Part shown: positions 1 through 420 of the stretch, piece by piece
Position numbering within the stretch: the first letter of the stretch is position 1
Layout of the letters: each line of letters opens with the position of its first letter
Assembly: GCF_003334305.1 (NCBI RefSeq)
Contig: NZ_QOWS01000077.1
Source: Escherichia coli
GTDB taxonomy: Bacteria; Pseudomonadota; Gammaproteobacteria; Enterobacterales; Enterobacteriaceae
Direction: 5' to 3' (one strand)
Length of the DNA: 420 nt
Translations under genes and position numbers: made by a program
Notes under the pieces: generated by a model
Told to the model about the DNA's origin: nothing
Database searches by the model: none
Seen by the model: the letters and a program-made list of their open reading frames with translations, nothing else

Positions 1-420
1 TCCGGGTGCAGTTCCGGGTCCGGCAGCCGGTTTCCTGCCGGGTCCGTCGCATACGGGATATCGATATCCAGGTTCGCCGCCGTGGTGTGGACGCCCGTCA
101 GCCTTCCCGTGTCACTGTAACGGTACTCCCGGCTCTCCTGCGGGCCGCTGATGCGGATTAGCTGTCCGTTGTCGTTCCAGTCGTAGTCCCGGTCAAGCTG
201 CGGGAGGTTCAGGTGCCTGCTCTGTAGCTGCCCTGTGAGGGTGTATGTGCTGGTCAGTTCATATGCTGCATTACTGCCTGCCATGCTGCCGAAGCTGCGC
301 ACCGTCTCACGGTGCAGCCGGTCCCGCGTGTACTCGACCAGCGGTGTTCCGCCCAGCTTCATCCCCGCAAGATAACCGCTGCCATACGTCAGCCACTCCA
401 CCGGCGGCAGACCGTCCGGC
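1..420 (-). CDS. rhs: Rhs-family (rearrangement hotspot) YD-repeat protein, conserved core region; internal fragment, partial at both ends (gene continues beyond both window edges). Paralog not assignable from this window.
   Basis: Seen in sequence: the minus-strand frame with codons at + 419..417 down to 5..3 is open for all 139 codons, while the other five frames each have stops (for example + strand TAA 118-120, TGA 149-151, TAG 159-161 and 184-186). The translation carries YD-repeat-like motifs (DRDYDWNDNGQLIRISG, REYRYSDTGRLTG, LVEYTRDRLHRETVRSFG) that fit the Rhs/YD consensus of conserved Y-x-Y-D followed by G-x-L and a downstream G. GC3 is about 78% by hand count, consistent with genuine coding in this frame. 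Established knowledge: enterobacterial Rhs cores are GC-rich and built from such repeats. No database search was run. Confidence 0.88.

Follow-up and report, generated by a model that had tools for sequence, protein, structure and literature searches.

GC-rich composition of an internal Rhs core segment in Escherichia coli and its antiquity in the Escherichia lineage

The 420-nucleotide stretch of DNA analyzed here, hereafter the window, is an internal part of the conserved core of an Escherichia coli clade-I Rhs gene, and its high GC and GC3 are the compositional signature of the whole 3.8-kb core rather than a property local to the window. The comparison with E. albertii dates the compositional anomaly to before the split of the two species, and its persistence since then is a matter of slow amelioration versus active maintenance. 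As a discovery the composition is an ordinary one. Descriptions of E. coli Rhs elements as a GC-rich core followed by an AT-rich tip go back to the 1990s and the work of the Hill laboratory, and Rhs core composition is a standard example of compositionally foreign DNA.

Identity of the window and of its parent gene

The window contains 269 G+C bases among its 420 (64.05%; C 141, G 128, T 96, and A 55 on the plus strand), distributed rather evenly at 0.55-0.68 per 60-base step. A single frame among the six is open throughout: the minus strand at offset 1, read from window position 419 to 3, has 139 complete codons and 0 stops (3..419, minus strand; GC 64.0%), both window ends being intragenic, while the remaining five frames contain 2-6 stop codons each. 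In this Rhs frame, G or C occupies 90, 68, and 109 of the 139 first, second, and third codon positions, respectively (GC1/GC2/GC3 of 0.647/0.489/0.784), an inequality that is not due to chance (chi-square 26.3, 2 df, p = 2e-6). Both the total G+C and the number of codons ending in G or C (109/139, 78.4%) had been counted by hand in the first-pass annotation and proved exact on recount. The coding strand is purine-rich, with A 96 versus T 55 and G 141 versus C 128.

Three shorter ORFs of the window, a 51-aa antisense one at 6..161 (plus strand), one at 235-375 (plus strand), and one at 307-396 (minus strand), were rejected as genes: their frames are closed elsewhere in the window by 2-6 stops, against 0 in the Rhs frame. 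Such shadow ORFs arise because stop codons are scarce in GC-rich DNA. Antisense ORFs of up to 353 aa span Rhs cores in E. albertii (L008:3427-4488, minus strand) and in E. coli 64A:C (L012:19524-20402, minus strand), where they are likewise an expected by-product of stop-poor DNA and a trap for gene callers.

The window translation matches the NCBIfam model RHS_core (NF041261) at positions 794-931 of 1261 (E = 1.4e-81). In E. coli GE3, where the window lies at L001:15001-15420, it encodes residues 795-933 of an RHS element core protein, 1411 aa long, whose gene is linked to vgrG. This parent protein scores 2618.9 bits against NF041261 (cutoff 2000), with its residues 1-1258 covering model positions 1-1261. 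The match stops at residue 1258, the final residue of PIRYTDPLGL (aa 1249-1258), which is the parent's version of the core-end motif PxxxxDPxGL; the motif is outside the window and inside the Rhs-associated core domain TIGR03696 (aa 1181-1258). YD/RHS repeats are recognized in six stretches by TIGR01643 (YD_repeat_2x), and Pfam RHS_repeat matches both the window and N-terminal sequence of the parent. One repeat unit within the window (PF05593 RHS_repeat, i-E = 4.7e-06) comprises residues 81-114 of the 139-aa translation, that is, positions 78..179 on the minus strand by hand conversion from the residue numbers. The parent begins with MGGKPAARQGD..., and a Pfam search of its residues 1-400 returned DUF6531 and RHS repeats, with no match to a PAAR family. 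Its structural relatives are T6SS Rhs effectors: Tse5 (8cp6, E = 2e-122), 7q97, 8qja-8qjd, and 8uy4. In the published structures, the YD repeats build a closed β-shell around the C-terminal toxin.

A megablast search of 5,426 complete E. coli genomes found the window 100% identical in many chromosomes, where it is annotated as "RHS element core protein". Any match was present in 3,656 of these genomes, and a match of at least 99% identity in 284. The median number of places with a match is 2 per genome, with a maximum of 5, most copies being 80-95% identical; identity to rhsD is about 78% at the nucleotide level. As it is near-identical in few genomes and 80-95% identical in most, the window represents one subfamily of a multicopy family. 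The rhs gene located 3' of vgrG in the chromosomal T6SS-2 cluster has been named rhsG (PMC10711316), and by analogy with that vgrG-rhs arrangement the window's gene is probably rhsG.

The gene order in GE3 is a T6SS cluster (tssB to tssK), hcp, vgrG, rhs, a small overlapping ORF, an ISEc1 pseudogene, a second, frameshifted rhs, ydcD, two ISAs1 pseudogenes, yafV, ivy, and fadE. The window's gene is thus linked to a T6SS, with tssB-K, hcp, and vgrG directly upstream; vgrG is upstream in E. albertii as well. The locus corresponds to "position 1" of Jackson 2009 (dnaQ to fadE, clade I; PMC2935791). The frameshifted second rhs core (L001:19563-23689) has 60.3% GC, the ydcD that follows it has 27.3%, and three transposase pseudogenes of the ISAs1/ISEc1 family accompany them (L001:17404-18540 and 23870-26235), a set that amounts to an orphan core/tip array and the "H-repeat" elements classically found with it.

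The tip of the parent gene (L001:16394-16852) gives a weak Pfam match to YkuD (L,D-transpeptidase; E = 4.8e-05), which suggests a putative toxin directed at peptidoglycan; there are known T6SS effectors that resemble L,D-transpeptidases. The ORF downstream of it (L001:16833-17225, 130 aa) overlaps the end of the tip by 23 nt and is the candidate immunity gene. No family was found for the tip or for this ORF in an NCBIfam search.

Composition of the core against the host genome and at the tip boundary

The host background was sampled as six 50-kb regions spaced around the chromosome of E. coli GE3 (300 kb), a strain that contains the window at 100% identity. This sample has 51.0% GC, with a mean of 0.509 and an sd of 0.061 over 420-bp windows, and its long ORFs have GC1/2/3 of 0.596/0.408/0.588. 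Relative to these 420-bp windows, the window stands at z = +2.2, and its GC is reached by 15 of the 4,922 non-Rhs ones (0.3%), located in dnaX and the phn operon; the rhsD gene present in one 50-kb sample was left out of this set. Its GC3 of 0.784 is reached by 3 of 407 in-frame 139-codon chunks of long ORFs (mean 0.584, sd 0.093). By itself, the window is a tail value and not unique. The phn operon of GE3 (phnP to phnC, L007:38727-49540) has 60.1% GC over 10.8 kb, with gene GC3 of up to 0.80, and since it supplies nearly all of the GC-matching non-Rhs windows, high GC alone is not specific to Rhs in E. coli.

The core as a whole is more extreme than its 420-bp part. With 63.5% GC over 3,774 bp (L001:12620-16393; GC3 0.758), it tops all 2,754 same-length windows sampled, the highest of which reaches 62.0% in the phn operon (z = 3.1). 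Its neighbors are lower, at 55.7% for vgrG, 51-58% for the T6SS genes, and 50-57% for yafV, ivy, and fadE. Codon usage, for which the first-pass annotation had proposed a comparison with the genome, is also atypical for E. coli: the Karlin B of the window, 0.712, is exceeded by 0 of the 407 length-matched chunks, and that of the core, 0.535, is as extreme in 1 of 150 sampled genes. G-ending codons are favored relative to the genome sample (CGG 0.44 versus 0.12, GGG 0.37 versus 0.15), and ACG, GCG, and GTG are also among the preferred ones. The third positions of the core contain 585 G, 369 C, 176 T, and 128 A, the GC3 excess being mainly G rather than C. Among Ile codons, ATA has a share of 0.28, compared with 0.08 in the genome sample, unusually high for a gene so rich in GC.

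A sharp drop in GC at the end of the core, also anticipated in the first-pass annotation, was observed: GC falls from 63.5% in the core to 44.0% in the tip (L001:16394-16852) and GC3 from 75.8% to 22.2%, and the ORF downstream of the tip has 32.6% GC. In 30-codon steps, GC3 passes from 0.70-0.87 to 0.10-0.30 within ~100 bases. A two-segment maximum-likelihood fit puts the change point at base L001:16336, 57 nt 5' of where the PxxxxDPxGL motif ends, and the homology between E. coli and E. albertii ends at the same base (L001:16336; L008:4944). This base falls between two DPxGL motifs, DPIGL and DPLGL, the second of which reads DVLGL in E. albertii. Because homology ends 57 nt 5' of the motif end, the tip-replacement junction lies slightly upstream of the canonical demarcation. 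The second rhs copy of the GE3 locus, together with ydcD, shows the same plateau followed by a trough. A G+C-rich core with an A+T-rich extension, and C-terminal displacement, are established background (PMC2935791), and the statement of a G+C-rich core in that work bears out the earlier remark that the GC of the window matches known Rhs core composition.

Age of the core and origin of its composition

Genome contigs across species were scanned with exact-peptide patterns from the C-terminal half of the core, and among the matches listed the only non-E. coli genome is that of E. albertii. Its locus is syntenic with that of GE3. Between the two species, vgrG and the rhs core are 91.0% identical up to exactly L001:16336 and the flanking yafV-ivy-fadE segment is 91.2% identical; the GC of the E. 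albertii core is just as high (64.2%, GC3 0.778), and the tips are unrelated. A syntenic orthologue with flank-like divergence implies that any acquisition predates the split between E. coli and E. albertii. As judged from these alignments, the core appears to have been inherited together with its flanks since before the split, the tips alone having been replaced. Jackson 2009 likewise infers that position 1 is older than E. coli (PMC2935791).

Horizontal acquisition, which the first-pass annotation had proposed from the GC content, is the standard published inference, attributed to Wang, Zhao & Hill 1998 where that work is cited in PMC2935791. The atypical composition and codon usage support the proposal, which stands to that extent; composition alone is no proof, and the event, if it happened, was ancient. 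No donor lineage was found among the contig-scan matches listed, which consist of E. albertii and E. coli-derived contigs, and no phylogenetic incongruence is in hand, the sole non-E. coli relative among these matches being the syntenic E. albertii orthologue. Three metagenome-assembled (MAG) contigs of 2.6-3.6 kb, assigned to Collinsella (L009), Akkermansia muciniphila (L010), and Lentisphaerae (L011), all of unrelated phyla, are 95-96% identical at the nucleotide level to E. coli vgrG/rhs loci and almost certainly represent E. coli DNA binned in error; sequences as repeated and as odd in composition as Rhs cores interrupt assemblies and lead binning astray.

Decay of the composition towards that of the host was analyzed on 895 codons synonymous in E. 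coli, E. albertii, and rhsD, with rhsD as the outgroup. On the branches leading to E. coli and E. albertii, parsimony counted 67 GC-to-AT versus 28 AT-to-GC synonymous changes (2.4:1), from which the equilibrium GC3 would be about 0.57. In sequences of skewed composition, parsimony exaggerates the number of changes from a common to a rare state, and this excess was rejected as evidence of amelioration on account of that bias, a maximum-likelihood (ML) re-analysis having given an equilibrium of 0.71 with a wide interval. In the latter, a three-taxon general Markov (latent-class) fit with a bootstrap interval, the ancestral GC3 is 0.791 versus 0.771 and 0.783 in present E. coli and E. albertii, respectively, and the 95% interval of the equilibrium, 0.47-0.84, spans both the host value of 0.59 and the present value of 0.77. 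Arithmetic from the ML counts indicates that host-like substitution over the E. coli/E. albertii divergence is expected to lower GC3 by ~2.7 points. With so small an expected fall, the persistence of the signature needs no special force and argues neither way.

Rhs cores of further hosts were retrieved by tblastn against the plasmid collection PLSDB, which includes some mislabelled chromosomes. The A. baumannii core has 37.2% GC (GC3 0.25) in surroundings of 38-41%, that of an A. piscicola plasmid 40.7% in 37-38.5%, that of Rahnella 56.4% in 54-57%, and that of a B. glumae plasmid 66.7% in 64-65%; Acinetobacter cores range over 37-41% GC, with GC3 of 0.25-0.36. As the cores of these hosts match host GC, the Rhs fold does not in itself entail a high GC. 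In E. coli, the position 1 core (63.4%), the rhsD core (63.2%), and a distant Rhs next to kdp in strain 64A:C (L012:17394-22052; 61.7%, GC3 0.73) all lie in surroundings of about 51%, so that three Rhs lineages, the last with only 29% protein identity to the window's gene, stand 10-13 points above the surrounding GC. A GC excess common to such divergent E. coli lineages calls for a common donor type or a host-specific maintaining force. The genome of S. marcescens has about 59% GC. An Rhs core of that species has been reported at 67.7% GC (PMC2935791).

Within PLSDB, the linear 19-kb record NZ_CP069916.1 ("Klebsiella oxytoca plasmid unnamed5"; L017) carries ybbP-rhsD-ybbC ... mnmH-allS-allA-allR-gcl and, from its E. 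coli gene order and protein accessions, looks like a mislabelled or contaminating fragment of an E. coli chromosome. NZ_OL790696.1 (4.8 Mb), NZ_CP134663.1 (4.9 Mb), and NZ_CP077849.1 (3.7 Mb) are chromosomes labelled as plasmids.

We regard it as probable that the composition reflects ancestry in a GC-richer background, followed by an ancient entry into Escherichia and slow amelioration, with the tips added later. The core would have evolved in, or been exchanged among, such a background, would have reached Escherichia before E. coli and E. albertii diverged, and would since have decayed only slightly towards its 51% GC host. AT-rich tips and their immunity genes (GC3 about 0.22-0.28) would have joined later and separately by C-terminal displacement, and such a later attachment would account for the sudden loss of GC where the core ends. 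Muto-Osawa/Lawrence-Ochman regressions imply a genome GC of 62.4% (from GC1) and 63.9% (from GC3) for the core and of roughly 32-44% for the tip; applied to the E. coli sample as a control, they give 52-54%. We infer a GC-rich donor, and slow amelioration as the cause of the persistence. This account agrees with the one in the literature (Wang, Zhao & Hill 1998, as cited in PMC2935791; Jackson 2009).

The reading that competes most directly with slow amelioration is that the GC-rich state is actively maintained within Escherichia, either through GC-biased gene conversion between the multicopy, recombining cores or through selection, for instance for escape from the H-NS-type silencing that acts on AT-rich DNA. 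We consider it unlikely. In its favor, GC3 has barely shifted from its ancestral value in either species, the ML equilibrium is closer to the present GC3 than to the host value, and the occurrence of cores at several places per genome provides conversion partners; maintenance, if true, would explain both the near-static GC3 and the GC of 62-64% shared by three E. coli Rhs lineages as divergent as the kdp-adjacent one, and the S. marcescens core, too, exceeds its genome in GC. Against this, the ML interval also holds the host GC3, purely host-like decay would amount to so few points that the persistence is unforced, and the Rhs cores of four other hosts display no GC excess. In its fuller form, with 62-64% GC held far above the genome equilibrium by conversion or selection and the tips remaining as silenced cassettes, the proposal seems to us slightly less probable again.

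The other explanations fare worse. If YD-repeat shells needed Gly/Arg/Pro/Thr-rich sequence, any Rhs core would be GC-rich as a by-product of its protein, and the core indeed has a raised GC2 (0.49 versus 0.41), with Gly, Arg, Pro, Thr, and Tyr enriched and Lys, Asn, Ile, and Phe depleted. Amino-acid composition explains the raised GC2 alone, and the protein is to that extent behind the total GC excess; the largest excess, however, is at synonymous third positions (0.76-0.78 versus 0.59), and the homologous but GC-poor Acinetobacter cores contradict the idea, which we hold to be very improbable. A recent import of the gene into particular E. coli strains is equally improbable. It would fit the patchiness at high identity, with copies of at least 99% identity in 284 genomes versus any match in 3,656, and the ISAs1/ISEc1 remnants in the locus, but the E. 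albertii orthologue is syntenic and as divergent as the flanking housekeeping genes, and position 1 predates E. coli in the inference of Jackson 2009 (PMC2935791). Recent import is contradicted for the core by this synteny and holds for the tips, which differ between the species. Finally, the first-pass annotation had allowed that the composition would be unremarkable if the host genome were itself GC-rich, at about 64%, or if there were no contrast with the flanking genes, and would lie well above average in an enteric bacterium of roughly 50% GC. The latter is the case: the exact matches are in E. coli chromosomes, the sampled host GC is 51.0%, and the core at 63.5% contrasts with neighbors at 50-58%, which refutes a GC-rich host.

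Relation to known Rhs elements and foreign genes

The YD-repeat shell of the window's protein is homologous to those of the T6SS Rhs effectors Tse5 from P. aeruginosa (8cp6) and RhsA from P. protegens (7q97), of the Rhs cores from Salmonella/Advenella (8qja-8qjd), and of Tse15 from A. baumannii (8uy4). In the alignment with Tse5, the matched stretch is 294-933 of the parent, and the part encoded by the window (aa 795-933) falls within it. Also conserved between these solved effectors and the parent is the Rhs-associated core domain, located C-terminally in the shell, whereas the N-terminal and toxin domains differ. Relatives of the solved effectors have a host-like base composition in the hosts sampled, unlike the E. 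coli genes.

The closest counterparts are the clade I Rhs elements of E. coli, which Hill and co-workers divided into the subfamilies RhsA-B-C-F, RhsD-E, and RhsG-H. The window's gene shares with them the 3.8-kb GC-rich core, the PxxxxDPxGL end, the AT-rich variable tip, and the small ORF located 3' of it, and its locus has the same ISAs1-type (H-repeat) remnants, orphan rhs fragment downstream, and vgrG upstream; we found no substantive difference. Like the "foreign" E. coli genes of Lawrence & Ochman, the core is atypical in GC, GC3, and codon usage, but most genes of that kind are AT-rich and strain-specific, whereas the Rhs core is GC-rich, old, and multicopy.
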